Shown here: one piece after another, positions 31,139 to 59,884 of the stretch
How the letters are laid out: each line of letters opens with the position of its first letter
Position numbering within the stretch: the first letter of the stretch is position 1
Assembly: GCA_016186765.1 (NCBI GenBank)
Contig: JACPLD010000001.1
Location: 42,560-106,559 of the forward strand
DNA length: 64,000 nucleotides
Origin: Candidatus Kaiserbacteria bacterium
GTDB lineage: Bacteria > Patescibacteriota > Minisyncoccia > Phycocordibacterales > UBA2100
Direction of reading: 5' to 3'
Notes under the pieces: model-generated
What the model was told of the DNA's origin: nothing
Database searches by the model: none
The model's input: the letters and a program-made list of their open reading frames with translations, nothing else
Translations under genes and position numbers: made by a program

Positions 31139-31141
31139 GAT

Positions 31142-35249: not shown

Positions 35250-35252
35250 GTT

Positions 35253-36345: not shown

Positions 36346-36422
36346 AAGACACAAGAGACAAGATACAATAACCAAACTAGTTTGGAGCTTGTTTCTTGGT
36401 GTTTGGTTATTACACTGTGCCG

Positions 36423-37475: not shown

Positions 37476-37484
37476 AATGTATCC

Positions 37485-38348: not shown

Positions 38349-38397
38349 ATTCACACATTTGCCTTTTGCCCTTTGCTTTTTGCCTTAGAATTAAGGT

Positions 38398-39770: not shown

Positions 39771-40031
39771 ATGAAGACGTTTGCAGAAAGGGTTCGCGCA
39801 GTCGTTCGTAAAATCTCGAAAGGGAAGACCATGACCTACGCGCAAGTCGCGCGTGCCGCCGGTAGGCCCCGAGCTGCTCGGGGGGTAGGTGCTATCATGC
39901 GAAGCAATTACGACGAACGCATTCCGTGCCATCGTGTCGTTCGCTCGGATGGCAAGCTCGGTGGATACAATCGCGGTGGCACGGGACGCAAGCGAACGAT
40001 TTTGAAGAAAGAAGGTGTGTATGAGTGGTGA
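39771..40031 (+). CDS. MGMT family protein (methylated-DNA-protein-cysteine methyltransferase DNA-binding domain)
   Basis: MTYAQVARAAGRPRAARGVGAIMRSN..IPCHRVV active-site region. Confidence 0.7.
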   Translation: MKTFAERVRAVVRKISKGKTMTYAQVARAAGRPRAARGVGAIMRSNYDERIPCHRVVRSDGKLGGYNRGGTGRKRTILKKEGVYEW

Positions 40032-40614
40032 GAAGTACGAGAAGATGAAACAGATTCGGGATGAGGTGGTCGCGCTTCAAGGTGGACTGGCGGATTACCG
40101 GCGGGAGAACAACTACCACGCGGTCTTGGGGGAGGGAAGCCATGATGCGAAAATTATGTTCATCGGTGAAGCGCCGGGACAGAACGAGGCGAAAACGGGG
40201 CGACCTTTTTGTGGCGCTGCGGGCAAACTTCTCGATCAATTGCTCGAAGGAATAGGCGTCCCACGCGATAGTGTCTACATCACCAACATCGTGAAGGATA
40301 GGCCGCCGGGAAATCGCGATCCCTTGCCAAGCGAGATCGAGCTCTACGCGCCCTTCCTCGACAGGCAGATCGAAATTATCCAGCCAAAGTGCATCTCGAC
40401 GCTCGGCCGCTTCTCGATGGAGTACATCATGCGAAAGTTTGGTCTCTCATTCGAGCTCGAGCCCATCAGCCGCGCGCATGGCAAAAGCTACGAAGCAGAG
40501 ACCTCGTGGGGCCCGATGAAAATCGTCCCCCAATACCATCCCGCCGCCGCGATTTATAACCAATCCCTCGTCGAAACCCTCAAAAAAGATTTTCAGATCC
40601 TAAAAACCATCTAG
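40021..40614 (+). CDS. udg: uracil-DNA glycosylase, family 4
   Basis: IMFIGEAPGQNE..GRPFCGAAGKLL..HPAAAIY motifs of type-4 UDG. Confidence 0.8.
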   Translation: MSGEKYEKMKQIRDEVVALQGGLADYRRENNYHAVLGEGSHDAKIMFIGEAPGQNEAKTGRPFCGAAGKLLDQLLEGIGVPRDSVYITNIVKDRPPGNRDPLPSEIELYAPFLDRQIEIIQPKCISTLGRFSMEYIMRKFGLSFELEPISRAHGKSYEAETSWGPMKIVPQYHPAAAIYNQSLVETLKKDFQILKTI

Positions 40615-40619
40615 CCACT

Positions 40620-40647
40620 ATATTCTAATTCGCGCGAATTAGAATAT
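40620..40647. repeat. perfect 28-bp palindrome CTATATTCTAATTCGCGCGAATTAGAATATAG between convergent genes
   Basis: Read directly; no adjoining U-tract, so it is a bidirectional terminator or a protein-binding site. Confidence 0.4.
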
Positions 40648-40755
40648 AGGCATGAATACCTCCGCAAGGATTTTCAGGTGTTGAAAGAGATATAAAAAGC
40701 CACCCCCTCGCGCAAGACGAGAGTTTGGCTCTTTGTCCCGCGAGGGGGATATGGA

Positions 40756-41031
40756 TCACGCCGTTTGCTGTCTGCGTTTCGCTAATCGCGCGTTCATGGC
40801 GTCCGCGTCAATGTTACCGGAGAGTGGTGCGATAGGCACTTCCGTAACTTCGGCAAGTGCCTGCTTCGCAGCGTCTTCGTCGGGGAAGTAATAACATGAG
40901 CATCCCCATGTTCCGCCCAACTGTAGGTAATCTGCGAATTCGCTAACGCTGCGGCTCACATAGAATTTGCCAACCAGGGCAGCGATGCCACTCGGCGCAC
41001 GCCTGACTCGCGGTTTGTCTCTGTTACACAT
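40756..41031 (-). CDS. hypothetical protein
   Basis: ORF MCNRDKPRVRRAPSGIAALVGKFYVS..; no family recognised. Confidence 0.35.
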   Translation of the reverse strand: MCNRDKPRVRRAPSGIAALVGKFYVSRSVSEFADYLQLGGTWGCSCYYFPDEDAAKQALAEVTEVPIAPLSGNIDADAMNARLAKRRQQTA

Positions 41032-41164
41032 GGCCGTATCCTCCGTTTGCCGCGCAGATAGTACAACACGGTGCAACGTTCGTCAACCAAAACTCCTCTG
41101 CAAGGATTTGAGGATGTTGACGAAAGTGCTTGGAGTTACCGCGTAGTCGAGGTATAAAGTCGCC

Positions 41165-41338
41165 ATGAACTGGAACCTGTTTGGCCTGAACCCGAAGTTC
41201 AAGGATTTCATCGAGAAATATCCCAATAAAACTGTTTTAGGAGTTGCTTGGGCGATGTATTGGCGGTTCCTGGTACTAGTACTGGCACTTGAGATGATTA
41301 TTGGAATTATTTTTGTCCTTTCGAATATTATTTTCTGA
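41165..41338 (+). CDS. possible small membrane protein (57 aa), not in the ORF track
   Basis: ATG..TGA ORF MNWNLFGLNPKFKDFIEKYPNKTVLGVAWAMYWRFLVLVLALEMIIGIIFVLSNIIF with a clear TM helix; its 3' end overlaps the convergent peptidase gene. Confidence 0.3.
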   Translation: MNWNLFGLNPKFKDFIEKYPNKTVLGVAWAMYWRFLVLVLALEMIIGIIFVLSNIIF

Positions 41339-42599
41339 GAAGGGTGAGTGATGCATCCTTATTTGTGTGCGGGCCGATGATGGCGAGGTTGAGGCGCTCG
41401 GTACGTAGCAGGTCGCGGGCGACGCGTTCTATGTCGGCGGCGGAGACAGTGTCAATGCCTTCGAGCATCTCTTCGAGCAGGCGGACGCGAGCGAGATTGA
41501 TCATCGAGGTCGCCGCGTGATTCGCTATCTCGTCGCTCGTTTCAAGCGAGAGCGTCATGGTGCCCTTGATGTACTGCTTTGCTTTCGCAAGCTCCGCCGC
41601 CGACACCTTCGTCTTCTTTATCTTCTTAAACTCATCGAGAATCGTCTTCACCGTCTTCTCGAGCTTCGCGTGCTCGACGCCGGCTTGTACGGCGAGATAG
41701 CCGGTGTCGGGGTAGCGTTCCACCCACGCGTGCACGGAGTAGGCGAGACCGCGCTTCTCACGCACTTCGAGGAAGAGGCGGCTGCTCATGCCCGCGCCGA
41801 GGATGGTCGAGAGCACCGCGAGCGCGTATTCATCTTTGTGTAAATACGGATACGCCGGCACGCCGAGGATGAAGTGCGTCTGGTCAGTCTTCTTTTCTTT
41901 TATCGAGACTCTTGGTTCATTCTGTTCCGAGACGAACGCGATGAAGTTCGGAGGATTGCCATGCGGGAGCCTCCCGAAGTCTTTCTTTATTCTCGCGAGC
42001 ACTTTCTTTTCGTCGAATGAGCCGGCGATACAAACGACCGTATTGAGCGGCGTGTAGTTGCGCTTCAGGTAGGCAGCAAAATCTTTGCGCGTGAACGAGC
42101 GAATGTTCTCCTTTGGCCCAAGGATTGTTCGCCCGAGCGGATGCTCTTTGCCGAAAAGGAGTGCCTCGAACACATTGTCCACTGTGCGCATCGGCATGTC
42201 TTCGTACATGTCTATCTCTTGAATAATTGCACCGCGCTCCTTCGTTATTTCCTTTTCAGGCAGCCTCGAGTTGAGAAAGATGTCGCTAATGACGTCGAGT
42301 GCAGTATCAAGGTATTGCTCCGAGACTTTGGCAAAGTAGGCGGTGCGCTCTTTGGCAGTAAAGGCGTTGTAGACTGCACCAATGCCGTCGAGCTCCTCGC
42401 TGATAGCTTTTGCGCTCGGCCGCTTTTGGGTGCCTTTGAAAAACATGTGCTCCAAAAAGTGCGCGAGGCCGTTCTCATGACCGTTTTCATAGCGTGAGCC
42501 CGTGCCCGTCATCACGATTACTGTCGCCGTCCTGTTCTCCGGCATTGGTGCGAGCACGATACGCAAGCCGTTTTTCAACGTATGAGCGATGTATTGCAT
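41328..42599 (-). CDS. M16 family zinc peptidase (insulinase-like)
   Basis: HFLEHMFFKGT inverted zinc-binding motif (HxxEH), ~424 aa. Confidence 0.8.
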   Translation of the reverse strand: MQYIAHTLKNGLRIVLAPMPENRTATVIVMTGTGSRYENGHENGLAHFLEHMFFKGTQKRPSAKAISEELDGIGAVYNAFTAKERTAYFAKVSEQYLDTALDVISDIFLNSRLPEKEITKERGAIIQEIDMYEDMPMRTVDNVFEALLFGKEHPLGRTILGPKENIRSFTRKDFAAYLKRNYTPLNTVVCIAGSFDEKKVLARIKKDFGRLPHGNPPNFIAFVSEQNEPRVSIKEKKTDQTHFILGVPAYPYLHKDEYALAVLSTILGAGMSSRLFLEVREKRGLAYSVHAWVERYPDTGYLAVQAGVEHAKLEKTVKTILDEFKKIKKTKVSAAELAKAKQYIKGTMTLSLETSDEIANHAATSMINLARVRLLEEMLEGIDTVSAADIERVARDLLRTERLNLAIIGPHTNKDASLTLLRK

Positions 42600-42680
42600 T
42601 GCTGCGCATAGTATCGCCTCGTCCATCTTACAGCAACAAAATCTCGCCATTCCTCGGAGGCAGTGATAAACTCATGGTCA

Positions 42681-44582
42681 ATGACGGTCAACGAAATTCG
42701 GGCAAAGTACCTCGAGTTCTTTGAGAAGCGCGGACACTTCATCATCTCCTCCGCTTCGCTCGTGCCCCACAACGATCCGACGACGCTCTTTACGGGAAGC
42801 GGCATGCAGCCTCTCATCCCATATCTCCTCGGCAAAGACCATCCCGCCGGAAAACGCCTCGCTAATTCACAGAAGAGCTTCCGCACCGAAGACATCGAGG
42901 AGGTGGGCGACAACCGCCACACGACCTTTTTCGAGATGCTCGGCAACTGGTCTTTGGGCGACTACTTTAAGAAAGAAGAACTTCCGTGGCTGTTTGAATT
43001 CCTTACCGACGAGATCGACCTCGATCCCTCGAAGCTCTACGTAACCGCATTCGCTGGCGACGAAAGGCTCAAACTTTCTCGTGACACCGAATCAGCGGCC
43101 ATTTGGAAAGAGCTTTTCGCGAAGAAGGGAATTGATGCGAGAGACGTCGTCATCGGTTCGCAAGAAGACGGTGCTCGCCTCGGGATGCAAGGTGGACGCA
43201 TTTTTTATTACGATGCAACCAAGAACTGGTGGAGTAGAGCGGGCGCGCCGGAGAACATGCCCGCTGGAGAGCCGGGAGGACCGGACTCGGAAATTTTCTA
43301 CGATTTTGGTCTGCCGCATGATGCCCGCTTCGGCGACGAGTGTCATCCGAATTGCGACTGCGGACGCTTCCTCGAGATCGGGAATTCGGTCTTCATGCAG
43401 TACATCAAGAAGAGTTTGCCAGCTCCCGAGGGTTCCTTCGGCCTCTTGCCGAAGCAGAACGTCGACTTTGGCGGAGGCTTAGAGCGCATCGCAGCGGCTT
43501 CCGAGAACAGTGCAGACATCTTCGCCATAGATGTTTTTTCCGACATCATCGGGCTCCTCATTCACTTCTCCAAAAAGGAGTATACCGACAGCCGCTATGC
43601 ACGGAGCTTCCGCATCATCGCCGATCACATCCGCGCGGCAACCTTCATCATTAGCGACGGTGTGAAGCCTTCGAATACCGAGCGCGGCTACGTGCTTCGC
43701 CGTCTCATCCGCCGCGCAGCCCAGCACGCTCTCAAGCTATCGGTGGGCGACAAAGACAAAGAAGACAGCATGCTCGTGCGGGCAGCTGTCGTCACGATCG
43801 AGAAATACAAGGAGGTGTATCCCGAGCTCGATGGCGAGGCGGCCTACAAGGAGATCACCGAGACGATCTGGAACGAGGAGAAACAATTCGCGCTTACGCT
43901 CGAGCGTGGCATGCGTGAGTTCGAGCGGATCGCTTCGACAGGGCACATCGAAGCGAGCGAGGCGTATACGCTCTTCACGACACACGGCTTTCCGTTCGAG
44001 ATGACACTCGAGCTCGCGAAAGAGCGCGGCATCGATGTTGACGAAGAAGGTTTTAAGAGGGAAATGAAGAAACACCAAGAAATTTCGCGTGCGGGCGTCA
44101 CCCAGAAATTCAGGGGAGGTCTTGCCGATACTTCGGAGAAAACGACACGCCTCCACACCGCGCATCACCTTCTTCTGAAAGCACTCCAGGTCGTGCTTGG
44201 TGCGCATGTGAAGCAACGTGGATCCAACATTACACAAGAACGCCTCCGCATCGATTTTTCACATGGCGAAAAAATGAGCAAAGAGCAACTTGCCGAGGTG
44301 GAGCGCATCGTGAATGAGAAGATACAGGAAGGCATACCGGTCATCCGGACAGAGATGTCAAAAGAGGAGGCCGAGAAACTGGGTGCCGAACACGAGTTCG
44401 GCGCAAAATATCCCGAGCGCGTATCCGTGTACTCCGTCGGCCCCCTCGATAAGGCCTTCTCAATAGAGTATTGCGGCGGCCCGCACGTTTCTAATACGAG
44501 CGAACTCAAAGGTACATTCAAAATACAAAAAGAAGAGGCGGTTGCGGCCGGTATCAGGAGAATCAAGGCTGTTCTCCAGTGA
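42681..44582 (+). CDS. alaS: alanine--tRNA ligase, short form lacking the C-terminal C-Ala domain
   Basis: MTVNEIRAKYLEFFEKRGHFIISSASLVPHNDPTTLFTGSGMQP class II AlaRS N-terminus; editing-domain HxxxH and CGGPHV motifs present; ~633 aa. Confidence 0.85.
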   Translation: MTVNEIRAKYLEFFEKRGHFIISSASLVPHNDPTTLFTGSGMQPLIPYLLGKDHPAGKRLANSQKSFRTEDIEEVGDNRHTTFFEMLGNWSLGDYFKKEELPWLFEFLTDEIDLDPSKLYVTAFAGDERLKLSRDTESAAIWKELFAKKGIDARDVVIGSQEDGARLGMQGGRIFYYDATKNWWSRAGAPENMPAGEPGGPDSEIFYDFGLPHDARFGDECHPNCDCGRFLEIGNSVFMQYIKKSLPAPEGSFGLLPKQNVDFGGGLERIAAASENSADIFAIDVFSDIIGLLIHFSKKEYTDSRYARSFRIIADHIRAATFIISDGVKPSNTERGYVLRRLIRRAAQHALKLSVGDKDKEDSMLVRAAVVTIEKYKEVYPELDGEAAYKEITETIWNEEKQFALTLERGMREFERIASTGHIEASEAYTLFTTHGFPFEMTLELAKERGIDVDEEGFKREMKKHQEISRAGVTQKFRGGLADTSEKTTRLHTAHHLLLKALQVVLGAHVKQRGSNITQERLRIDFSHGEKMSKEQLAEVERIVNEKIQEGIPVIRTEMSKEEAEKLGAEHEFGAKYPERVSVYSVGPLDKAFSIEYCGGPHVSNTSELKGTFKIQKEEAVAAGIRRIKAVLQ

Positions 44583-44660
44583 ACAGAAAACATCAAACAG
44601 AGAACAGAAAATCCCAAAGTATTATCCCTTGTCCACTGTTCACTGTTCTCTGTTCTCTGT
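44582..44660. promoter_or_regulatory. family-2 inverted-repeat module (AACAGAAAACATCAAACAGAGAACAG ... CCACTGTTCACTGTTCTCTGTTCTCTG) ending at TATACT, 9 nt before the next ATG
   Basis: Read directly; a paralogous module lies at 48487..48574 upstream of rpsD. Confidence 0.5.
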
Positions 44661-44673
44661 ATACTGACTGACG

Positions 44674-45828
44674 ATGTTCCGCCTCACGGGGAAACAGAGT
44701 GGAAGGACGGTCGCCGTTGCCGATATCGGGAGCAGCAGTGTTGCTGTTGGTATCGTGCGCGTCGTGCCGCATGGAGGAGCTCGCGTGCTTGTTGCGGAGC
44801 GCGCAACCCTTCCTGTAAGCGAGCGGAGTTTGGAGGCGACCGCTACCGGAGTTATCTCCCTGCTAGAAGAAACGGCCACAAAAGTGCTCGCTACATATGC
44901 AGGAGCAGCGGAAAGGCCGAAGCATGTAGAAGCGGCGTACGCTGTCATTCATTCGCCTTGGACGCGCTCGAAAACGATCCGCGCCACATTGCAGCTTCCG
45001 GAAGAGTTGCGCATCGAGCGGGGGATGATCAGCAATCTTGCGCAAGAGGCACTACAGGCCGATGCCGAATATCAGCACGACAAAGTTCTTGAAGCCGGCG
45101 TTATCCGAGTGGAGTTGAATGGATATCCAACGCTAAAGCCTGTCGGGAAGCGCGCGCATCATGTCGCTGCCTCCGCACTTCTTTCGGAGTGCGACCCTCG
45201 CATTCGCGCGGGTGTCGCAGAGGTGCTTGCAAAGGTATTCGCATGTCCACCACCCACGCTTCGATCGGACACACGAGCCCTTCTCTCGGTCACGCGCGAG
45301 AGCTCTACACTTCCGAAAGAGGCGCTCATTGTCAATATGACGTACGAGGCGACCAACATTGTCGTTGTGCGAAAGGGTATCATTGCTGAAACGGCACTCG
45401 TTGCCGAAGGCATCGGCTCGATCTTGCGTCGCATTGCGGGGGAGAAAATGCCCGAAGAGACGCTTGCGCTGATACGGCTACTCGCGCTCGACCAGTGCGA
45501 CTCCGACGCATGCGAAGCGACAAAAGCGGCGATCGCTCGTGCCGAACCGGAGCTTGCGAGAATCTTCGGCGAAACGTTCGGTCACTTGAGTGCCTCGCGG
45601 CGCCTGCCTAACAGGCTCGTCCTTGTGGCCCATGAGGACCTCGCGGGATGGCTTTCGCGTTTTTTCGATCGCATTGACTTCGCGCCGTTCACGGTGACAA
45701 CGCGCCCATTCCTGCCAGTTCCGCTTTCGTTGGAAAGTATTAAAGAACTCGCCGTCTTCGAGAATGCGTCGGGAGACGTCTCGCTTGGCATTGCAGCCGC
45801 GCTTGTCAACATGGAAGAATACGTATGA
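44674..45828 (+). CDS. hypothetical protein, possibly ASKHA (actin/FtsA/PilM-like) fold
   Basis: N-terminal VAVADIGSSSVAVGIV resembles a phosphate-1 loop; otherwise unassigned. Confidence 0.4.
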   Translation: MFRLTGKQSGRTVAVADIGSSSVAVGIVRVVPHGGARVLVAERATLPVSERSLEATATGVISLLEETATKVLATYAGAAERPKHVEAAYAVIHSPWTRSKTIRATLQLPEELRIERGMISNLAQEALQADAEYQHDKVLEAGVIRVELNGYPTLKPVGKRAHHVAASALLSECDPRIRAGVAEVLAKVFACPPPTLRSDTRALLSVTRESSTLPKEALIVNMTYEATNIVVVRKGIIAETALVAEGIGSILRRIAGEKMPEETLALIRLLALDQCDSDACEATKAAIARAEPELARIFGETFGHLSASRRLPNRLVLVAHEDLAGWLSRFFDRIDFAPFTVTTRPFLPVPLSLESIKELAVFENASGDVSLGIAAALVNMEEYV

Positions 45829-45920
45829 GATATAGGGCACGGAGTATAGGGTATAATGCGAACCAATGGTAAATCCTTTTTCTTGCCGCCGTACGCGACA
45901 CTCCATACACGATACTTCTT

Positions 45921-47273
45921 ATGGCTAAGGATTACTTCCAGGACATTACGCCGCCCTCTCCTGACACGCCGCGTTCGCTCAAAGTAAACTCCGCTGCGGG
46001 AGAGACGGCGTCTCCTGATCCGCCACCGTCCTCTTCAGCAGATAGTGGCGAGAGAAGCATCCGCAATATTCAAGTGCCCATTAGGTCGCGCCGCATTCCC
46101 GATATCAGAGAAAATGCCACTGCCGCTCCGCCTCGCCGCGTAGAGCGCATGTGGCTGTGGGGAGGCTCTGCACTCGCGCTCCTCGTCTTGGGAGCGCTCG
46201 CGCTCGTGGCGCTTCGGCCGACGACCGTGACCGTCATTCCACGCTCGCACACCGTGTTCTTCGACGATACAGCACGATTCGTCGCCTACGCTGCGGACAC
46301 GGCGGCTACCGGCACGCTCTCGTTCACGATCGAGGAGAGCACGTATGAAGATTCACAATTGGTCGCGGCGAAGGGCGTGGAACGCGTAGAAGAGCGCGCA
46401 AGTGGCAACGTCACCGTCTACAATGAATACTCGAGCGCCCCCGTGAGGCTTCTGAAGAACACCCGTTTCGAAACGCCAGACGGACTCATTTTTCGTGCTC
46501 CCGCTGAAGTGCTCGTTCCCGGCCGCAAAGGAACTACGCCGGGAGAGATCACTATCACCGTCTTTGCAGACGCCCCGGGAGAGAAGTACAACGTCGGTCC
46601 GATCTCACGCTTCACGCTTCCCGGACTGAAATCGTCCAGCATGTATAGCAAAGTTTATGCGCGCTCGACAAGCGCGATGAGCGGCGGCTTTGCAGGAGAG
46701 CGCCCCGCTGCAGAAAAGAGCGCGCTCGACGCCGCGGTTTCGGAAATTCGCGGTCGCCTCGAGGAAAAAGCGCGCGCGGCTGTAGGGGAAGTTGGCGCGG
46801 ACGAGGCAGCGTTCTTCGATCTCGCTCGTCTCACGTATGAAAGCCTCCCGGCAACAATGGAGGGAGAGGGCAATGTCCGCATCACCGAGCGCCTTCGCGT
46901 CGAACTCCCGATATTTCCCGGGGACATGTTCGCGCATGTCGTTGCGGAGAGCGTTTCCGCAGGCGCCGAGGAAGGAAGCATCGTCTTGAAGCCGCTTGAG
47001 GGTCTCTCCGCACACACGGAAACGAAGATATTCTCGGCGACTTCGCCGCTCACGTTCGCGCTTTCAGGTCAGGCACAGCTCGTGTGGAAGGTTGACACGG
47101 AGGAGCTCGCGCAGGCGCTCGCCGGCCGCGACGAATCGGCATTTCAAACGATCGTGGAGGGTTTTTCGAGCATTGAAGAGGCGCACGCACGAATCGAACC
47201 GTTCTGGAGCAACTCGTTCCCGAACGATCCGAGTGACATCAAAATCAAAGTGAAAGAGCCCGACGCCAGGTAA
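45921..47273 (+). CDS. hypothetical single-pass membrane protein with a Pro/Ser-rich N-terminal region
   Basis: One TM helix (WLWGGSALALLVLGALALVAL) then a large extracytoplasmic domain. Confidence 0.5.
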   Translation: MAKDYFQDITPPSPDTPRSLKVNSAAGETASPDPPPSSSADSGERSIRNIQVPIRSRRIPDIRENATAAPPRRVERMWLWGGSALALLVLGALALVALRPTTVTVIPRSHTVFFDDTARFVAYAADTAATGTLSFTIEESTYEDSQLVAAKGVERVEERASGNVTVYNEYSSAPVRLLKNTRFETPDGLIFRAPAEVLVPGRKGTTPGEITITVFADAPGEKYNVGPISRFTLPGLKSSSMYSKVYARSTSAMSGGFAGERPAAEKSALDAAVSEIRGRLEEKARAAVGEVGADEAAFFDLARLTYESLPATMEGEGNVRITERLRVELPIFPGDMFAHVVAESVSAGAEEGSIVLKPLEGLSAHTETKIFSATSPLTFALSGQAQLVWKVDTEELAQALAGRDESAFQTIVEGFSSIEEAHARIEPFWSNSFPNDPSDIKIKVKEPDAR

Positions 47274-47278
47274 AAAAA

Positions 47279-47307
47279 TTGACTCGCTCTCTCTAGTCTG
47301 CTATTGT
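47279..47307 (+). promoter_or_regulatory. sigma-70-like promoter candidate for the infA/ribosomal cluster (-35 TTGACT, 17-bp spacer, -10 TATTGT)
   Basis: Read directly; the predicted TSS is only ~7 nt upstream of infA ATG 47321. Confidence 0.45.
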
Positions 47308-47320
47308 TTTGCCGCACGTT

Positions 47321-47527
47321 ATGCAAGAGCCGCAGCTCGTTGAGGGAGTCATCGAAGAAGCACTCCCCAACACCCTCTTCCGCGTGAAAACGAAAGAGGG
47401 GGAAACGATGCTTGCCTACTTGGCGGGAAAGATGCGGCTCCATCGGATCAAGGTGCTCGTCGGTGACAAAGTCACGTTGCAGCTTGATCCATACGGTGGC
47501 CGAGCCCGGATCATTCGAAGGGTGTAG
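47321..47527 (+). CDS. infA: translation initiation factor IF-1
   Basis: VEGVIEEALPNTLFRVKTKEGETMLAYLAGKMRLHRIKVLVGDKVTLQLDPY, S1-like; ATG 47321 preferred over the TTG at 47309. Confidence 0.85.
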   Translation: MQEPQLVEGVIEEALPNTLFRVKTKEGETMLAYLAGKMRLHRIKVLVGDKVTLQLDPYGGRARIIRRV

Positions 47528-47539
47528 CGTGCATAGACC

Positions 47540-47653
47540 ATGAAAGTAAAAGCTTCAGTCAAGAAGATTTGCATGAACTGCCGCGTCGTCCGAAGGCGCG
47601 GCCGCGTGTGGGTTATTTGTACGAACCCCCGCCACAAACAGCGGCAGGGCTAA
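47540..47653 (+). CDS. rpmJ: 50S ribosomal protein L36
   Basis: [37 protein letters not shown] (37 aa); below the ORF-track size cutoff. Confidence 0.85.
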
Positions 47654-47658
47654 GTAGT

Positions 47659-48039
47659 ATGCGTATTGCAGGAGTCACCATACCGGATGGGAAACGCTTG
47701 GAGATAGCACTCACCGCGATTTACGGCGTCGGCAGACCGCGCGCACTTTCGACACTCGAGACTCTCGGGATCAATCCGGGGAAGCGCTCGTCTGAATTGA
47801 GTGCGAAAGAAGAGAGCTCTCTGCGCGAGGCGATAGAGAAATTCAAGATCGAAGGCGAACTGCGCCGCGAGATAAGCGGGAACGTCCGTCGCCTCAAAGA
47901 TATCAAGACATACCGAGGTGTGCGACACACAAAGAAACTTCCCGTGCGCGGCCAGCGCACGCGAACAAACTCGCGAACCGTTCGCGGCAATGTGCGAAAG
48001 ACCATGACATCGGGTCGCCGCAAGCTCGAAAAGACATAA
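47659..48039 (+). CDS. rpsM: 30S ribosomal protein S13
   Basis: MRIAGVTIPDGKRLEIALTAIYGVGR.. Confidence 0.9.
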   Translation: MRIAGVTIPDGKRLEIALTAIYGVGRPRALSTLETLGINPGKRSSELSAKEESSLREAIEKFKIEGELRREISGNVRRLKDIKTYRGVRHTKKLPVRGQRTRTNSRTVRGNVRKTMTSGRRKLEKT

Positions 48040-48043
48040 ACCT

Positions 48044-48478
48044 ATGGGGAAAAAACGAATCATCAGAAAATCCGGCGGTACCGTCGATCAGGGACTCAAG
48101 TCCCGATCGCTGGCGCGTGTCGCGAAAAAGAATATCATCGCGGGCACACTGCACATTCACGCAACCTACAACAACACGAAAGTGCTGCTCTCCGATAAAG
48201 AGGGCAACGCGGTTGCGTGGTCATCCTCTGGGGCGCTCGGGTTCTCAGGTGCAAAGAAAGGAACGCCCTTTGCTGCAGCGAAAGTAGGCGAGCTCGTCGG
48301 CGACAAGGCGAATATCATCGGTGTCAAAGAAGTCGATGTCGTCATTCGCGGCGTCGGGGCAGGAAGAGAATCTGCACTTCGCGGTTTTGCGGGAAAGGGC
48401 ATCGAGATCAGCCGCATCGCCGATCAGACCCCCGTACCGCACAACGGTCCGCGACCGCCGAAACCCCGAAGGGTCTAG
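48044..48478 (+). CDS. rpsK: 30S ribosomal protein S11
   Basis: AGTLHIHATYNNTKVLLSDKEGNAVAWSSSGALGFSGAKKGTPFAA.. Confidence 0.9.
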   Translation: MGKKRIIRKSGGTVDQGLKSRSLARVAKKNIIAGTLHIHATYNNTKVLLSDKEGNAVAWSSSGALGFSGAKKGTPFAAAKVGELVGDKANIIGVKEVDVVIRGVGAGRESALRGFAGKGIEISRIADQTPVPHNGPRPPKPRRV

Positions 48479-48486
48479 TTATCAGC

Positions 48487-48574
48487 AAACAGAAAACAGA
48501 GAACAGTATGAATGCGGCAAGAAAATTATCGTACGATCAGAGTTTCTGTTCACTGTTCACTGTCCACTGTTCAC
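48487..48574. promoter_or_regulatory. family-2 inverted-repeat module upstream of rpsD (AACAGAAAACAGAGAACAG ... CTGTTCACTGTTCACTGTCCACTGTTCAC)
   Basis: Read directly; paralogue of 44582..44660. Confidence 0.5.
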
Positions 48575-48583
48575 TATCCTGAT

Positions 48584-49189
48584 ATGTTGCCGATAAAATC
48601 GAAATACAAGATCGCGAAGAGACTGGGACCTGCGATTTTTGAGCAAACGCAAACGCAGAAATTCGCGCTCTCGGACGCCCGTGCGAAAAAGTCTCGGCCG
48701 CGCCGCCGCGGCGCTTCTGATTACGGTCGGCAGCTGCTCGAGAAGCAGCGCGTTCGCTACACGTATGGCATCACCGAGTCGCAGCTCGCAAACTACGTAA
48801 AAAAGGCTTACACGACAGCTGATCCTTCCACGAGCCTCCACAAGATGCTCGAGATGCGTGCAGACTCGATTGTCTACCGCGCAGCGCTCGCGCCCACGCG
48901 GCGCGCGGCGCGACAGCTTGTGAGTCACGGCCATATCCTCGTGGGCAGCGTACGCATCACGACTCCTTCCTACCGTCTCAACAAGGGAGATACGCTCAGT
49001 GTTCGGGAGGGAAGCCGCCGAGGGCCGCTCTTTGCGGTTCAAAGCGAGGAAGGTGAGACGCGGCAGGTGCCACAGTGGCTTTCGGTAGACCGGGAGACAC
49101 TCTCGATAAAGGTGACAGGCGAGCCTCTGTATGGTCCGGCCGAAACGACTCTCGACTACAAAACAGTATTTGAGTTTTACAGTCGATAA
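48584..49189 (+). CDS. rpsD: 30S ribosomal protein S4
   Basis: MLPIKSKYKIAKRLGPAIFEQTQ.. with an S4 RNA-binding domain. Confidence 0.9.
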   Translation: MLPIKSKYKIAKRLGPAIFEQTQTQKFALSDARAKKSRPRRRGASDYGRQLLEKQRVRYTYGITESQLANYVKKAYTTADPSTSLHKMLEMRADSIVYRAALAPTRRAARQLVSHGHILVGSVRITTPSYRLNKGDTLSVREGSRRGPLFAVQSEEGETRQVPQWLSVDRETLSIKVTGEPLYGPAETTLDYKTVFEFYSR

Positions 49190-49259
49190 GTGTTGGTGTA
49201 TACTTCTCGCCGTTTTTTATTCGAATGTGTTCTAATACCAACAGGTCTGCAATGAACAT

Positions 49260-50225
49260 ATGTCTGATTACTATATAGCGCTTCCTTCGAAGCCGCGCGT
49301 GGTTTCAGAGTCGGAGCGCTGTGGCACCTACGAGGTAGATGGTCTCTACCCGGGCTATGGCTATACGCTTGGCAACTCGCTCCGGCGCATTATCCTCTCG
49401 TCGCTCCCCGGCGCCGCCATCATCCACGTCAAGATCCCCGGCGTCTCCCACGAGTTCTCGACGATCGAGGGCGTGAAGGAAGACGTCGTTACCCTCCTCC
49501 TTAACATCCGCAAGATCCGCATCAAAATCGCGGTCGATGAGCCACAAACCCTCACGCTTTCTGTAAAAGGTCCTCGCGTCATCACTGCCGCGGATCTCAA
49601 GGTGCCCGGGCAGGTCGAATTGCTGAATCCAGAGAGCTACATTGCGGAAATCACCGGCAAAGGCACGCTCGAGATCGAAATGCGGGCCGAGCGAGGATTA
49701 GGTTACGTGCCGAAGGAGGCTCATCAGAAAGAACGCGTCGAGGTCGGCGTGATCGCGCTCGACGCCATCTTCTCGCCGATACGCCGTGTGAACTACGAGG
49801 TAGAGAACATGCGCGTAGGCGACAGGACCGACTTCAACCGCCTTCGCATCCTTATCGAAACCGACGGCGCACTTTCGCCGCGCGAGGCGCTGGAGCGCTC
49901 CATCGAGACCATGATCCACCAGCTGAAGGCAATTGTCGGCTTCAAAGAAGAGGAGGTGATTGAGCTCGGTGCGAGAGCACCCGAGGTATTGCCCGAGCGG
50001 CCGGATCGCTCCGCGCCTGATTCCGAGATCCTCAAGACACGCGTATCGGAATTAAACCTTCCGCAGCGCGTTGAAGCGGCGCTCGACAATGCATCTATTC
50101 GTACCGTCGGAGGCTTGGTACGAAAACGCGAAGATGATCTGCTCGCGATCGAGGGCTTAGGGCAAAAAGGATTGCAAGAAGTGAAGCGAGCGTTGTCGAA
50201 TCTTGGACTTACCTTGAGACAATAG
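49260..50225 (+). CDS. rpoA: DNA-directed RNA polymerase subunit alpha
   Basis: GYGYTLGNSLRRIILSSLPGAAI.. N-terminal domain plus C-terminal alpha-CTD. Confidence 0.9.
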   Translation: MSDYYIALPSKPRVVSESERCGTYEVDGLYPGYGYTLGNSLRRIILSSLPGAAIIHVKIPGVSHEFSTIEGVKEDVVTLLLNIRKIRIKIAVDEPQTLTLSVKGPRVITAADLKVPGQVELLNPESYIAEITGKGTLEIEMRAERGLGYVPKEAHQKERVEVGVIALDAIFSPIRRVNYEVENMRVGDRTDFNRLRILIETDGALSPREALERSIETMIHQLKAIVGFKEEEVIELGARAPEVLPERPDRSAPDSEILKTRVSELNLPQRVEAALDNASIRTVGGLVRKREDDLLAIEGLGQKGLQEVKRALSNLGLTLRQ

Positions 50226-50228
50226 CCT

Positions 50229-50579
50229 ATGCGTCACCACGACCGCAACAAAAAGCTCGGCCGCGTCAAACGACAGCGCACAGCACTTCTACGAAGCCTC
50301 GCGCGCTCCCTCATCCTGCATGAGGGCATCACGACAACGGAGGGGAAGGCGAAAGCATTGCGCCCGTTTGTGGAGCGGCTCGTGACCATGAGTAAAAACG
50401 GCTCTCTTTCCCACACGCGCACGGTCGCAAAGCGGCTCGACTCCGCGCAAGCAAGTAAAAAGCTGAGTGAGCTCGCGAAACGCTACGAGAAACGTGCAGG
50501 CGGCTACACGCGCATCGTGCGGCTCGGCAGAGTGGGAAAGCGCGTCGGAGAAATGTCTCGGATTGAATTCGTCAAATAG
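50229..50579 (+). CDS. rplQ: 50S ribosomal protein L17
   Basis: MRHHDRNKKLGRVKRQRTALLRSLARSLILHEGITTTEGKAKALRPFVERLVT. Confidence 0.9.
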   Translation: MRHHDRNKKLGRVKRQRTALLRSLARSLILHEGITTTEGKAKALRPFVERLVTMSKNGSLSHTRTVAKRLDSAQASKKLSELAKRYEKRAGGYTRIVRLGRVGKRVGEMSRIEFVK

Positions 50580-50582
50580 CAT

Positions 50583-50930
50583 ATGAAAGAGTACACGATA
50601 GATGCTGCAGGAAAAACACTCGGAAGGGTTGCTTCGGAAGCTGCGAAAGCTCTGATGGGAAAAACCTCTGCCGATTACACGCCGCACATACGCTCGGAGG
50701 TGCGCGTGAAGATCGTAAATGTTGGCAAACTGTACATGCGCGCGCGCAAACGCTCGACCAAAACCTACACCACCTACTCTGGCTATCCGAGTGGTCGGAA
50801 AGTGGAGACCTACGCCGCACTTTCTTCGCGACGTGGCGCCGATGTTCCGCTTCGCCACGCGATCCGCCGCATGCTGCCGCGCAACACATTCTTGAAGGCA
50901 CGGATGAGACAGCTTGAGATCTCACTCTAA
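50583..50930 (+). CDS. rplM: 50S ribosomal protein L13
   Basis: L13 family sequence, 115 aa, upstream of rpsI as in the conserved L13-S9 operon. Confidence 0.8.
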   Translation: MKEYTIDAAGKTLGRVASEAAKALMGKTSADYTPHIRSEVRVKIVNVGKLYMRARKRSTKTYTTYSGYPSGRKVETYAALSSRRGADVPLRHAIRRMLPRNTFLKARMRQLEISL

Positions 50931-50934
50931 TTTT

Positions 50935-51330
50935 ATGGCAAAAGCACACGCGTACACGGAGGCAACGGGGCGTCGCAAGACGGCGACCGCGCGCGTTCGC
51001 ATCGCAGAGGCGAAAAATGCTTCGATGGTCGTGAACGGTAAGCCCGCCGAGCAATACTTTCCGCTCCCCCTGATGCTGAAGACCGCTTACGCGCCAATGC
51101 AAACGCTCTCTGCCACATACACCGTATCAGTCAAAGTGCAGGGAGGAGGGCTCAAAGCGCAAGCCGAAGCCGTTCGTCATGGACTTTCTCGCGCGATTGC
51201 AGAGCTCGTGCCCGAACAACGCAAGGACCTGAAAGTACACGGCTTCTTGAAACGCGACCCGCGCGCGAAGGAGCGGAAGAAATTCGGCCTCAAGGCAGCC
51301 CGAAGAGCGCCGCAATGGTCGAAGCGTTAG
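50935..51330 (+). CDS. rpsI: 30S ribosomal protein S9
   Basis: C-terminal ..HGFLKRDPRAKERKKFGLKAARRAPQWSKR; start taken at MAKAHAY. Confidence 0.9.
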   Translation: MAKAHAYTEATGRRKTATARVRIAEAKNASMVVNGKPAEQYFPLPLMLKTAYAPMQTLSATYTVSVKVQGGGLKAQAEAVRHGLSRAIAELVPEQRKDLKVHGFLKRDPRAKERKKFGLKAARRAPQWSKR

Positions 51331-51448
51331 CTTCGATCATTGCGGCAAGGAGAGGGTCGGGGAACCTGCTGGTTCCCCGTGGAGGAAGGAATGGGAAAAC
51401 CGTGGGTTTCCCAGAACCGCGAGTGGAGTAAACGATAGTCCCAACTGT

Positions 51449-51457
51449 GGTATAATC
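51449..51457 (+). promoter_or_regulatory. extended -10 element TGgTATAAT, 8 nt upstream of the grpE ATG (near-leaderless transcript)
   Basis: Read directly; preceded by two GC hairpins (GGGGAACC-TGCT-GGTTCCCC and GGGAAAACC-GTG-GGTTTCCC); no CIRCE inverted repeat was found. Confidence 0.4.
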
Positions 51458-51465
51458 CCGCCGCT

Positions 51466-52008
51466 ATGGCGGAGGACGATGTGCGTTTTGAAGCAGAAGA
51501 GGATCTCGGCGATGTTGCGGCGGCAAAAGCGAAGCTGAAAAAGCTGCGTGATGAGCTCGAGCGAGTGAAAAAAGAGCGGCAAGAGTACCTCGACGGTTGG
51601 CAGCGCTGCAAAGCCGACAGCATCAATCTCAAAAAAGAAGCTGAATCCCGTGCATCACGCACGGCCGAGCTGCTTCGCGAGGAGCTCATCCACGACATTA
51701 TTCCTGCGCTCGACAGCTTTGACATGGCGGCAGGAAGCGAGGCGTGGGCCTCTGTTTCCGACGGCTGGAAAAGCGGCATGGAATTGGTCCGCGACCAGCT
51801 CCTCGACGCGCTTTCGCGCCACGGCATTGAGCGGATAGGCAAGGTAGGGGAGTCGCTCGACCATGCGCGGCATGCGATCCTTGAGGAGCGAGATGATGTT
51901 GCTGGCGAAGAGGGAACGGTGGCGCGTGTCATCCGCTACGGCTACAAAACAAAAGATAGGGTCTTGCGTCCCGCGCAGGTTGTATTAAAATCTTCGCGCG
52001 CAAAATAA
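51466..52008 (+). CDS. grpE: nucleotide exchange factor GrpE
   Basis: Coiled-coil N-terminus and GrpE C-terminal domain (..TVARVIRYGYKTKDRVLRPAQVVL). Confidence 0.9.
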   Translation: MAEDDVRFEAEEDLGDVAAAKAKLKKLRDELERVKKERQEYLDGWQRCKADSINLKKEAESRASRTAELLREELIHDIIPALDSFDMAAGSEAWASVSDGWKSGMELVRDQLLDALSRHGIERIGKVGESLDHARHAILEERDDVAGEEGTVARVIRYGYKTKDRVLRPAQVVLKSSRAK

Positions 52009-52023
52009 ATTCATGAACGTTAT

Positions 52024-53889
52024 ATGGCACGAATCCTGGGCATAGATTTAGGAACAACGAACTCCGCGATGGCGGCCGTTATGGTGGGCGAGCCCGAGAT
52101 CATTGAGAACGCCGAGGGCGCACGCACGACGCCCTCCGTCGTCGCGATCTCAAAGACCGGCGAAAAACTCGTCGGTCTCCTTGCGAAACGCCAGGCGGTC
52201 ACAAACCCGAAAAACACGGTCTATCAGATCAAACGCTTCATCGGACACACCTTCGACGAACCGGGTGTTGCGAAAGACCGCGAATCAGTGCCATTCGAAG
52301 TACGTAAATCGGATGGGGGTATCCAGGTGCAAATGGGTGAGAAATGGTACCGACCGGAAGAAATTTCTGCGATGATCCTCCAAAAGTTGAAGCAGGACGC
52401 CGAAGCGCGTCTCGGCGAGACGATCACCGAAGCCGTCATCACCGTCCCTGCCTACTTCAACGACTCTCAGCGACAGGCCACCAAAGATGCGGGCAGGATC
52501 GCGGGATTGGACGTAAAGCGCATCATCAACGAGCCTACCGCGGCCGCGCTCGCGTACGGCTTCAACAAAAAGAAAAATGAGAAAATCGTCGTCTTCGACT
52601 TCGGCGGCGGCACCTTTGACATCTCGGTGCTGGAAGTGGGAGACGACGTCATCGAAGTTCGCTCGACCGACGGCGATTCACATCTCGGCGGCAAGGATTT
52701 GGACCAAAAAATCATGAATTGGATCGCCGACGAGTTCAAAAAAGAAAGCGGCATTGATGTACGCAACGACCCACTCGCGCGCCAGCGCCTCGATGAGGCT
52801 GCTGAGAAGGCAAAAATCGAGCTCTCGACGGCGCTCGAAAGCGAGATAAACATCCCATTCATCACCTCTGACGCTTCTGGACCCCGACACCTCTTGATCA
52901 AGATGACACGGGCAAAACTCGAAGAGCTCGCCAGCGAATTCATTGAGCGCGCGATGGCGATTACGAAGCGCGCCATGGACGCATCGCCCTTTGCTGTAGG
53001 CGATATCAACGAAGTCGTCCTCGTCGGCGGCCAAACGCGCATGCCAGCACTTCAGAAGTCTGTTGAACAATTTTTCGCAAAGAAACCGCACATGGGCGTG
53101 AACCCGGATGAAGTCGTCGCAATTGGTGCGGCAATACAGGGAGGAATACTGCGGGGCGATGTGAAGGACGTGCTCCTTCTCGATGTCATCCCGCTCTCAC
53201 TCGGCATTGAAACCCTCGGCGGTGTGGCGACCAAACTCATCGAACGAAACACCACGATCCCGACCTCACGCGCACAGACCTTCTCGACCGCATCGGACAA
53301 TCAACCTTCGGTCGAGATCCATGTGGTGCAAGGCGAGCGCCCAATGGCCGCCGACAACAAATCGCTCGGTCGCTTCAACCTCGACGGCATTCCTCCTGCG
53401 CCGCGCGGCATGCCCCAGATCGAAGTCAGCTTCGACATCGACGCAAACGGTATCCTCACGGTGAAAGCGAAGGATAAAACAACGAACAAGGAGCAATCTA
53501 TCCGCATCGAGGGCTCGTCTGGCCTCTCGGAAACCGACATCGAGAAGATGCGTAAGGATGCCGAAGCGAACGCCGAAGCCGATCGGAAAAAGAAAGAGCT
53601 CGTCGAGGCACAGAATGCCGCCGATCAACTCGTCTACGCGGCAGAGAAAGCGCTCAAAGAGCACGGGGGGAAGGTGGGCGATGATATTAGGAAAAATGTG
53701 CAGGAGAAAATCGACGCGCTCAAAACTATACGTGGTCGTTCCGACGTACATGCCATCAAGTCTGGCTCCGATGCACTCTCAAGCGCGATGAGTGCGATAG
53801 GCGAAGCGATGTCCAAAAGGGAGCAGCCTCCACCGAGCGACCAACCCGGGCGTCCAGGCGAATCCGGTGATGAGCCACCAAAGCCATAA
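52024..53889 (+). CDS. dnaK: molecular chaperone DnaK (Hsp70)
   Basis: [41 protein letters not shown] and other Hsp70 signatures. Confidence 0.97.
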
Positions 53890-53941
53890 GAATGAAGAGG
53901 TGCCTTTGCATTGCTCCTTGGGCTGTCTATAATGGGACGCG

Positions 53942-55027: not shown

Positions 55028-55036
55028 TCAGCTCAT

Positions 55037-55115
55037 AGCCACTAGCCAATAGGGTTTAGGGTTGCGGTATACTTTAGGCAATGGATTTCTCTAGTGGCTA
55101 TACCCTAGTGGCTAA
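55037..55115. promoter_or_regulatory. family-1 inverted-repeat promoter module (AGCCACTAGCCAATAGGGTTTAGGGTT..GGTATACT ... CTAGTGGCTATACCCTAGTGGCTAA) overlapping the called start of the next gene
   Basis: Read directly; the ATG at 55081 lies inside the module, so the true start of the downstream gene may lie further downstream. Confidence 0.45.
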
Positions 55116-55584
55116 TTTCTTTTCCGCTATTCCGACTGATTGGTTCATCATCGGCGGCATTGTGCTTCTCTCTGCATTCGATTGCGTCCGCACAGGAGTG
55201 CGGCGCGTCTCACAGATCGCGCTTGCCTTCCCGCTTTCAGCACTCCTCATGCAAAACCTTCCAAAAGCGTTCATTCTCGGCGAAGCGGCAGCGCAATTCT
55301 CCACACCCCTCATGCAAGCACTGCTACTTGGCTTTGTGTTCGCCGTTCTCTACGTGCTCATCGGACGCATTGGCATTTCGTGGGGAGGCGAGGAAGGGCA
55401 GCCGATTCAAGCAGCGCTCGCCGGCGTGGCGAGCGCAGGCATCGTCACGACTATGTGGATCGCGACGCCCGCGCTCGACTCGCTGTGGCATTTTGGCCCA
55501 CAGGTGCAAGAGATTTTCGGGGAAGCCTATCGTTTCTGGTGGCTCTTGGGCTCGCTTGCAGCACTTGCCTACGTGCGAGGCTAA
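55081..55584 (+). CDS. hypothetical membrane protein (CvpA-like size and topology)
   Basis: Several hydrophobic helices; start uncertain (see the overlapping module). Confidence 0.45.
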   Translation: MDFSSGYTLVANFFSAIPTDWFIIGGIVLLSAFDCVRTGVRRVSQIALAFPLSALLMQNLPKAFILGEAAAQFSTPLMQALLLGFVFAVLYVLIGRIGISWGGEEGQPIQAALAGVASAGIVTTMWIATPALDSLWHFGPQVQEIFGEAYRFWWLLGSLAALAYVRG

Positions 55585-55692
55585 AAGAATCCGGGGACTG
55601 TCCGGGTTTAGTGATCTTGCCTGCCGTGTGCAGACGTGGCATATTCAGTCGGGCAATAACATAGAGCAACAACATAGAACAGAGAGGATGAG

Positions 55693-59870: not shown

Positions 59871-59884
59871 GTTAGAATAGACCT

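Follow-up and report, generated by a model that had tools for sequence, protein, structure and literature searches.

The 64,000-nt stretch of the Candidatus Kaiserbacteria contig JACPLD010000001.1 (assembly GCA_016186765.1, positions 42,560 to 106,559), hereafter called the window, carries a gene cluster that reads, by Pfam assignment, alaS, two proteins without a family, infA, rpsM, rpsK, rpsD, rpoA and rplQ. Two gaps of this cluster, that between alaS and the hypothetical gene behind it (locus 1) and that between rpsK and rpsD (locus 2), are occupied by repeat modules of the same design. In both gaps, a left arm of (G/A)AACAG-N units is followed by a right arm of CTGTTC-N units in a strict 7-nt register. 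A module comprises 3–5 GAACAG-N units, a unique spacer of 17–39 nt and 4–5 CTGTTC-N units, and it takes up the gap completely, beginning at the stop codon of the preceding gene and leaving 3–8 nt before the next start codon. A preliminary description had reported inverted arms of CTGTTC(A/T) heptamers shared by these two loci in this gene context, and both the shared arms and the context were confirmed.

At locus 1, the 5′ arm begins right behind the alaS stop codon (TGA, 44580–44582) and consists of four degenerate heptamers, ACAGAAA ACATCAA ACAGAGA ACAGAAA (44583–44611, plus strand, as are all features of the two loci). The 17-nt spacer, TCCCAAAGTATTATCCC (44612–44628), has no second copy in the DNA compared and is partly kept in the relative L005 (relatives are designated by L numbers). 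The 3′ arm, TTGTCCA CTGTTCA CTGTTCT CTGTTCT CTG (44629–44659), touches a TATACT hexamer (44660–44665) and ends 14 nt before the ATG at 44674, with the hexamer lying in between and no Shine-Dalgarno (SD) motif. The hexamer had been described correctly, but its distance to the ATG was measured to be 8 nt instead of the reported 9 nt. The gene starting at this ATG encodes a hypothetical protein of 384 aa. Neither of the two proteins after alaS has a Pfam family, and a search at E ≤ 1 with both of them and with a 167-aa membrane protein encoded after dnaJ gave no usable match.

At locus 2, the rpsK stop codon (TAG, 48476–48478) is followed by the 7 nt TTATCAG and then by the 5′ arm, CAAACAG AAAACAG AGAACAG (48486–48506). 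The spacer (48507–48545) is unique and, at 39 nt, exceeds the 20–35 nt that had been proposed; L005 and L086 have weakly homologous spacers there (TATGA..TG.CG.CA..TCGTAC). The 3′ arm, CTGTTCA CTGTTCA CTGTCCA CTGTTCA CTATCCT (48546–48580), stops 3 nt (GAT) short of the rpsD ATG at 48584, again without an SD motif. The S4 protein of the window is identical to that of a Candidatus Kaiserbacteria metagenome-assembled genome. Over the 141 nt that were aligned, every base of the rpsK–rpsD stretch was identical in two independent Logan assemblies, and therefore the module is not an assembly artefact.

The frequencies of the repeat units were then compared with chance expectation. With up to two mismatches, CTGTTCACTGTTC matched the window 10 times versus 1.29 expected, a count reached by 0 of 100 shuffles, and 9 of the 10 matches fell inside the two loci; with at most one mismatch, AACAGAGAACAG matched 8 times versus 0.27 expected, and no shuffle reached 8. 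Tandem Repeats Finder reported period-7 arrays in all four arms (3.4–4.4 copies). When the window was scanned by autocorrelation, five strong regions were found at period 7 and none, at equal stringency, at every other period from 4 to 12, and period 7 was likewise over-represented in several relatives. Reading of all gaps in the window revealed about ten further intergenic regions that share the architecture with other units (TAGCCAC/CTAGTGG, TTTGCCT, AAGACAC), and at least four unrelated unit families coexist within the 64 kb. Ten of 12 arrays lie in the non-coding 7% of the window (P about 2 × 10−10). Two arrays run into gene ends, namely the C-terminal tail of carA and codons 4–12 of the gene after dnaJ. 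Array orientation relative to the gene varies within the window. Six modules in the window are paired, and in every paired module, here and in the other loci compared, the polarity is the same: on whichever strand it is read, a purine-rich or TAG-type arm stands at the 5′ side and one of the CTGTTC or CTAGTGG type at the 3′ side, and no module showed the opposite order. The two loci, far from forming a family of their own, are local examples of a wider heptamer population.

Corresponding loci were collected by a scan of species-representative genomes, a metagenome scan and look-ups of S4 homologues, and the gene cluster of the window was found to recur in many Kaiserbacteria and Paceibacteria. 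The rpsK–rpsD gap is only 4–7 nt long and carries no module in the closest relatives (L003, L083, L084/L085 and L088), and it is short and module-free in 22 of 24 metagenome relatives. A module occupies the same place in L086/L087 and in L005. The unit next to rpsD differs from genome to genome (CTGTTCA in the window, CTGTCAA in L086 and CTATTCG in L005), while every array is uniform within itself. One core change is moreover mirrored between the arms, GAACAG/CTGTTC in the window standing against GAATAG/CTATTC in L005, whose left arm also shows the corresponding change GCGAA. More distant genomes carry rpsK–rpsD modules of unrelated units, TAGCCAC/CTAGTGG in L014, TCTAAAC/GTTTAGA in L006 and GTATTTG/CAAATAC in L019. 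When five ribosomal and RNA polymerase proteins were used to build a neighbour-joining tree, the window, with the module, was sister to L083, without it; L086, with the module, was sister to L003, without it; and L005, with the module, fell outside them. This patchy presence inside a single clade demands several losses or several gains. As a separate observation, the rpsK–rpsD gap of L021 (3430–3542), and of L108 with the same sequence, holds inverted arrays of a 9-nt period (ACATGTTCT / ACAACANNT), and L021 has four period-9 regions and zero period-7 regions.

Other junctions behaved in a similar way. Downstream of alaS, L005 has a CTGTTCA hairpin as in the window and L084/L085 have a direct TTTGCCT array; in L086 and L083 no array adjoins the gene homologous to the alaS neighbour, its upstream gap is 19–20 nt, and in L083 two other genes stand between alaS and this gene. 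The junction downstream of dnaJ carries arrays in the window, L005, L086, L003 and L016, built from four units (TAGCCAC, ACTGTAA, TCAGTTG and GTAGTAC). Across loci of the Candidate Phyla Radiation (CPR), period-7 arrays are sporadic yet frequent, with nine in 20 kb of L079 and seven in L067, and arrays of the kind described here occur in L005, L014, L019, L067, L069, L079 and L086, which include Kaiserbacteria and other CPR. A few unit families recur among Kaiserbacteria loci at non-orthologous sites. Further copies and conservation in relatives, on whose absence the preliminary description had said its proposal would fail, were thus both found: L005 has both modules and L086 the one at rpsD. 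The unit itself is nothing special. Among IMG/VR viral contigs, exact 18-mers of CTGTTCA arrays, often in inverted pairs, were found in 36, those of permuted control units in 26 and 30, and those of CTAGTGG and CTGTCAA in 18 and 19, respectively. Because the permuted controls are about as frequent, heptamer arrays of any unit are common and CTGTTCA is not distinguished among them.

We favour, with moderate confidence, the reading that the two loci are CPR members of the heptanucleotide arrays known as short tandemly repeated repetitive (STRR) sequences or long simple sequence repeats (LSSRs), here arranged in convergent pairs as imperfect foldback modules, made by slippage and tolerated between genes. 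The properties of that class are observed here, namely at least three 7-nt units head to tail, an excess of period 7, a bias to non-coding DNA, convergent pairs, and a junction that is kept while its sequence varies. On this reading, replication slippage in a 7-nt register would generate the arrays and keep them internally uniform, and template switching within a module would keep the two arms complementary. Together, the two processes would produce concerted evolution of both arms at each site, as the succession of CTGTTCA, CTGTCAA and CTATTCG before rpsD suggests, while hairpin-mediated deletion would remove modules repeatedly. Modules would persist only where they are harmless, in the roughly 7% of the genome that is non-coding and occasionally in variable gene ends. 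The module of locus 1 sits directly upstream of a separate, conserved leaderless −10, and that of locus 2 is an operon-internal insert, which would be transcribed as an imperfect stem of about 25–30 bp with the rpsK stop and the rpsD start near each other at its base. Neither module, in our judgement, is a sequence-specific operator or an S4 leader.

Several points weigh against this reading. First, slippage and template switching were inferred and not directly observed. Second, copy-number instability between close strains, a further property of the class, was not seen: no array changed its copy number between the window and L001/L002 (100% identity), between L086 and L087 (99.98%), or between L084 and L085 (99.07%), the last pair differing by 86 substitutions over 10 kb without an array indel. 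Since three near-identical pairs showed no copy-number difference, the arrays are not hypermutable on a strain time scale, although these short, imperfect arrays form a small sample and slower slippage is compatible with the result. Hypermutability of the contingency-locus type was rejected on the same comparison. Third, the locus 1 gap is better conserved than expected. Alignment of the window with L005 gave 70 identical columns out of 100 (77% without gaps), while four-fold degenerate sites are saturated at 34–50% identity. This excess over the neutral level is the strongest hint of constraint in the comparison, although the promoter accounts for some of it and some is an inflation due to the alignability of arrays of the same unit. 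Recent horizontal transfer was discarded as its cause, the flanks of locus 1 being not unusually similar. The absence of strain-level variation and the conservation of locus 1 together speak against a purely neutral picture. Finally, the recurrence of unit families at non-orthologous sites is not predicted by pure de novo slippage, and the uniform polarity of the arms lacks an explanation.

The relation of the modules to promoters was evaluated from the spacing of −10-like hexamers. Of the 57 genes in the window that encode 120 aa or more, 14 carry TAnnnT exactly 6–8 nt before the start, for example at 8719–8724, 28982–28993 (minus strand), 29004–29009, 37473–37478, 38386–38391, 53928–53933 and 59873–59878, and SD-like cores are nearly absent. 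Independent gene calls in four relatives gave the same peak at 6–9 nt (23 of 67 genes) and an SD core in 4 of 67 genes. A TAnnnT at 6–9 nt is the geometry of leaderless transcripts, and judged by these spacings the genome looks largely leaderless and SD-poor. For the gene next to alaS (locus 1), about 12 relatives have TATACT, TATAAT or TACAAT at a distance of 6–8 nt from the ATG, whether or not a module is present. As this position is kept and its distance matches the genome-wide peak, TATACT is very probably, as had been proposed, a real −10, that of a leaderless-type sigma-70 promoter. Because the relatives keep the hexamer whatever else the gap contains, this −10 is independent of the module.

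The situation at rpsD differs. No −10 hexamer lies at the right distance there: of the two that had been put forward as its −10, TATCCT stands at 3 nt, and CACTAT at 6 nt matches at only three of six positions. Since, in addition, the gaps of relatives leave no room for a promoter, rpsD is best read as an operon-internal gene. The label promoter-proximal, under which the modules were first described, fits only about a third of them, approximately the proportion in which genes across the genome have a −10 of this kind. The arrays were also considered and rejected as a source of −35 elements, as TGTTCA at 17 nt matches in three of six positions and the 7-nt period puts no unit at 16–18 nt. A second palindromic module, not built of heptamers, is itself tied to promoters. 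It lies at 8680–8724 (and also at 9107–9153), where GTATACCCCATGAGAT ... ATCTCACGGGGTATAC(T) is followed by 6 nt and the GTG at 8732; its right half, ATCTCAC(G/A)GGGTATA(A/C)T, is found again in front of leaderless starts of several relatives, and its left half is the inverted copy. Such a non-heptamer module also occurs after alaS in L007, L008, L012 and L020 and before rpsD in L094/L095.

Possible, although we regard it as doubtful, is that the modules are functional, sequence-independent intercistronic RNA stem-loops in a genome that is poor in SD motifs and rich in leaderless starts. They might be processing sites, of the RNase III type or cut just 3′ of the stem, that give an internal cistron a near-leaderless 5′ end, they might protect the 3′ end of the upstream mRNA, or they might hold stop and start together for re-initiation, in each case as an alternative to the 4–7 nt coupled junction of the relatives. 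Placement agrees with such a role: modules fill gaps and end 3–9 nt before starts, including those of rpsD, rplM, rplQ, rpsM, rpmJ and tuf in several CPR genomes, and at both loci the base of the stem takes in the stop codon, with 8 nt left between the stem and the ATG. Retention of position while the sequence turns over is what would be expected if structure alone matters. The scarcity of SD-like cores, the frequency of leaderless-type −10 hexamers and the conservation of the locus 1 gap above the neutral level point the same way, as does the analogy with TAACTGA arrays, which stand just upstream of SD-less starts including those of ribosomal protein genes (PMC4679880).

Of the folding results, that for locus 1 (−25.3 kcal/mol, z-score −3.05 versus shuffles) favours such a role, whereas locus 2, at −24.8 kcal/mol, is no better than shuffles (z-score −1.14). 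Across the 24 modules folded from all loci, the sense RNA had the more stable fold in only 10. At both loci the antisense fold is much the stronger (−34.2 vs. −20.8 and −32.6 vs. −24.8 kcal/mol for the sense strand). There is therefore no sign of selection on the transcribed strand. RNAalifold found four compensatory pairs and a covariation term of +1.89, which is not supportive, for the three rpsD modules, and zero pairs and −0.75 for the two alaS modules, these being too few sequences to be informative. A terminator scan called nothing on the gene strand at either module, and the modules have no G+C-rich stem followed by a T run; its sole call there was a small minus-strand hairpin at 44586–44569, formed by the alaS end and the first heptamer. 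Canonical terminators do exist elsewhere in the window, for instance at 25749–25780 followed by TTTTGTGT. A gene for RNase III was not found by tblastn in the window, the only stretch covered by that search. Moreover, the mRNA would not contain the hairpin at locus 1 or at the dnaJ site, where a leaderless promoter is placed within the module or behind it, and sister lineages manage without the module.

The bolder form of the stem-loop idea, that in CPR with little SD pairing and many mRNAs beginning at the AUG the long heptamer-array stem-loops, irrespective of their sequence, are a selected intercistronic class, either cleaved or acting as a structural bridge and thereby giving an internal cistron such as rpsD a 5′ end or a re-initiating ribosome at its AUG, is in our view unlikely. 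If it held, stem-loop and 4–7 nt coupled junction would be interchangeable, which would explain the kept position together with the free turnover of sequence, and the start-proximal heptamer arrays of Beggiatoaceae, cyanobacteria and Bacteroidetes would represent the same solution.

It is improbable that the arrays act as double-stranded DNA sites, bound by a dimeric regulator or by a nucleoid-associated protein that polymerises along the repeats, with an effect on the adjacent promoter. The inverted arrangement around a spacer, the several phased copies and the independence of array orientation from the gene would suit a bound protein, and the real promoter of locus 1 has the right arm over its −45 to −15 region, in a phase relative to the −10 (TGTTCA-N17-TATACT) that is the same in L005. 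However, four or more unrelated unit families within 64 kb would require as many proteins, and CPR are a lineage of reduced genomes. The unit also changes at the orthologous rpsD site, modules lie inside operons and in coding ends, consecutive sites, being 7 bp apart, do not share one face of the helix, and modules adjoin a −10 in only about a third of cases, no different from the rate across the genome. The proposal that both loci are binding sites of a single dimeric regulator is not sustained, given the several unit families, the change of unit before rpsD and the position of that site inside the rpsM–rplQ operon.

Decidedly improbable, too, is the suggestion that the modules are non-autonomous mobile elements of the foldback type or like miniature inverted-repeat transposable elements (MITEs), with terminal inverted repeats built of subrepeats. 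Presence and absence at one site among close relatives, the same arm families at several non-orthologous sites in several genomes, and a uniform arm polarity, as though whole units had been copied, are features that mobility would produce. Nevertheless, BLAST of the spacers and of the whole modules against all DNA compared returned only the loci themselves (and contigs of the same genome), so that the spacers are unique and neither internal sequence has another copy there, which tells against the MITE-like nature that had been proposed. Since spacers from the same site show relatedness between genomes, which is weak at locus 2, and no other copies exist there, descent at each site is indicated, not transposition. 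The arms lack fixed ends, and no target-site duplication was visible by eye at the two loci or in comparison with the empty sites of L003 and L083.

That the module before rpsD is an S4-binding autoregulatory leader, as had also been raised with a fold and a look at relatives as its checks, is hardly credible: it lies directly 5′ of rpsD and can fold, but its z-score of −1.14 is that of a shuffled sequence, an Rfam scan of the 16 kb around the loci (40000–56000) gave no family at E ≤ 1, S4 leaders and Alpha_RBS included, other than a chance miRNA match (E 0.83), 22 of 24 metagenome relatives lack the module, whose sequence is not kept among the genomes that have it, and the same architecture precedes many unrelated genes, so that the proposal is effectively refuted.

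Some further candidates were set aside as well. LexA or Cheo boxes (GAAC/GTTC), DNA-uptake sequences, Rho utilisation sites and the heptamer footprints of cold-shock proteins do not accommodate all unit families, and neither does a supply of stop codons in all three frames, conceivable for units containing TAG.

The other arrays of the window include four further paired modules. That at 31059–31139 (minus strand; TAGCCAA TAGGGTA ... CTATACC CTAAACC CTAGTGG CTAGTGG) is flanked by two minus-strand genes, that at 35251–35302 (plus strand; TAGCCAC TAGCCAT TAGGGTT TAGGGTA ... CTAGTGG CTAA) fills a 61-nt gap 5′ of the ATG at 35311, and that at 36346–36412 (plus strand) is built of AAGACAC/AAGAGAC ... 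CTTGTTT/CTTGGTG. The module 3′ of dnaJ (55036–55117, plus strand) has the 5′ arm TAGCCAC TAGCCAA TAGGGTT TAGGGTT and the 3′ arm CTAGTGG CTATACC CTAGTGG. Its 5′ arm precedes a TATACT (55068–55073), which is followed by 7 nt and the ATG at 55081, and its 3′ arm (in the region 55081–55117) supplies codons 4–12 of the 167-aa membrane protein. The hexamer, the 7 nt and the ATG of this gene all fall within the spacer of the module, and one 7-nt unit more or less would shift the reading frame of the protein.

Solitary arrays were also detected. CTAGTGG CTAGTGG CTAATTC CTAATGA (24150–24180, minus strand) fills the gap 5′ of a minus-strand aldolase-like gene starting at 24146. Four direct copies of TTTGCCT (38359–38386, plus strand) touch TAGAAT (38386–38391), which is followed by 6 nt and the ATG at 38398; the same unit precedes the gene next to alaS in L084/L085. 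The direct array TAGGTTA TAGGGAC TAGGTTC TAGGTTT (63709–63737, plus strand) ends 3 nt before the ATG at 63741. In the end of carA, four direct copies of CTTTTGC (7387–7414, minus strand; GCAAAAG on the gene strand) end 9 nt before the carB start. The carA frame reads through this array (7379–7420, minus strand), giving the tail KRQRAKGKSTDI, so that the array became coding sequence, and the carA stop overlaps the carB start (ATGA). Heptamer arrays within coding sequence number two, the carA tail and (CAAGAAA)x3 at 20176–20200, which is in frame (…LEQKLQETRNKRLKVIATDGVFSMDGD…). A perfect palindrome of 32 bp, CTATATTCTAATTCGCGCGAATTAGAATATAG, lies between convergent genes at 40618–40649 and recurs with few changes at the orthologous place in L086 (2620–2655).

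Around the ribosomal protein genes, a gene for L36, rpmJ (ATGAAAGTAAAAGCTTCAGTCAAGAAGATTTGC...), was recognised at 47543–47660 between infA and rpsM, where it had been masked by a mechanical 156-aa open reading frame labelled rpsM. The gap between rpsD and rpoA (window 49190–49259) contains YYAACAGGTCC about 10 nt before the rpoA start, kept in four genomes (the window, L084, L086 and L088), and a hairpin, GTTGGTGTAT / ATACCAAC. A good site of the sigma-70 type, TTTACA-17-TATACT, lies upstream of rpoA at 49176–49204. This element may be a real leader or a regulatory element for rpoA.

Intergenic heptamer repeats, on record from cyanobacteria since about 1990 and subsequently also from Xanthomonas and Beggiatoaceae, have no accepted function; a search of the full-text literature found no paper describing heptamer arrays in CPR/Patescibacteria. 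In the very small genomes of CPR, heptamer modules fill whole junctions, including some in a ribosomal protein operon, beside leaderless, SD-poor expression, and so offer a compact setting in which a tolerated slippage product can be tested against a structural signal for internal cistrons. There are practical consequences too. The modules cause false N-terminal extensions in gene calls: upstream-extended starts, sometimes running across the repeat module, were seen in mechanical open reading frames and in some database entries of S4 homologues (214–223 aa). The modules can also be mistaken for operators, riboswitch-like leaders or MITEs.

The modules also match older repeats known from cyanobacteria. 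STRR heptamers of heterocystous cyanobacteria were reportedly described by Mazel et al. in 1990. Like the arrays here, they are dispersed in non-coding DNA with several unit families per genome, although their hosts belong to a different phylum and have a much larger genome. The STRR3 unit is CAACAGT. Its complement, ACTGTTG, is one base apart from the ACTGTTC found here, a likeness that is probably meaningless, as permuted controls are as common. A universal preference for units of the ACTGT type, to which the likeness to STRR3 and TAACTGA might point, was accordingly rejected, the permuted units being equally frequent in IMG/VR. For Calothrix PCC 7601, three tandem heptanucleotides are mentioned (Mazel et al., 1990, as cited in PMC4692102).

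Similar to short palindromic repeats of proteobacteria, namely repetitive extragenic palindromes (REPs), bacterial interspersed mosaic elements (BIMEs) and REPINs, the modules here are extragenic, occur within operons, form hairpins and are variably present among relatives. In contrast, every REP repeats the same conserved palindrome, is spread by a RAYT (REP-associated tyrosine transposase) and has no internal 7-nt periodicity, while in the modules the periodic arms alone recur and the units differ between sites.

The TAACTGA repeats of marine Beggiatoaceae, some Cyanobacteria and Bacteroidetes comprise 169 direct sets and one indirect set (MacGregor, 2015, PMC4679880). As in the present arrays, two to six heptamers lie a few nt upstream of SD-less starts, some of which belong to ribosomal protein genes, and no common function links the genes behind them (PMC4679880). 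They differ in being almost all direct, forward copies of one unit (PMC4679880), whereas the loci here are inverted CTGTTCA pairs and array orientation varies. TAACTGA-like units occur in the relatives L003, L086 and L079. In two of these, L079 of the Nomurabacteria (381–415, 4628–4668 and 16204–16239) and L086 of the Kaiserbacteria (250–287), direct TAACTAA/TAACTGA-like arrays ending in AACTACC(C) stand 3–10 nt before the ATG of unrelated genes and closely resemble those of MacGregor.

The closest parallels are found in Xanthomonas (GGGAATC) and Nostoc/Anabaena (GGGGA(C/T)T), for whose repeats no function was found (Rehm et al., 2015, PMC4692102). Heptamers are stated to be the commonest long simple sequence repeats, with polymerase slippage proposed as their origin (Mrazek, 2007, as cited in PMC4679880 and PMC4692102). 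In Xanthomonas, 89–93% of the arrays are intergenic, 70–75 convergent pairs occur, and arrays lie between the same genes in two species with varying length and sequence (PMC4692102). The features shared by these systems with the present modules are 7-nt units, mostly about four in number and roughly 90% intergenic, a location chiefly between genes of the same direction, many convergent pairs that could fold into stem-loops or cruciforms, and occupation of the same junctions in relatives with variable length and sequence; the Xanthomonas pairs are likewise described as always convergent (PMC4692102). Unlike here, their units are G-rich and quadruplex-forming, with one dominant unit per genome (PMC4692102), while the units of the window are not G-rich and fall into several unrelated families. 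Finally, Xanthomonas arrays lie nearer to the upstream gene (28 vs. 160 nt on average; PMC4692102), whereas the modules here fill very short gaps to within a few nt of the start. The phenomenon is already known, with its function unexplained, from other phyla, and its occurrence in CPR is what the present loci add.

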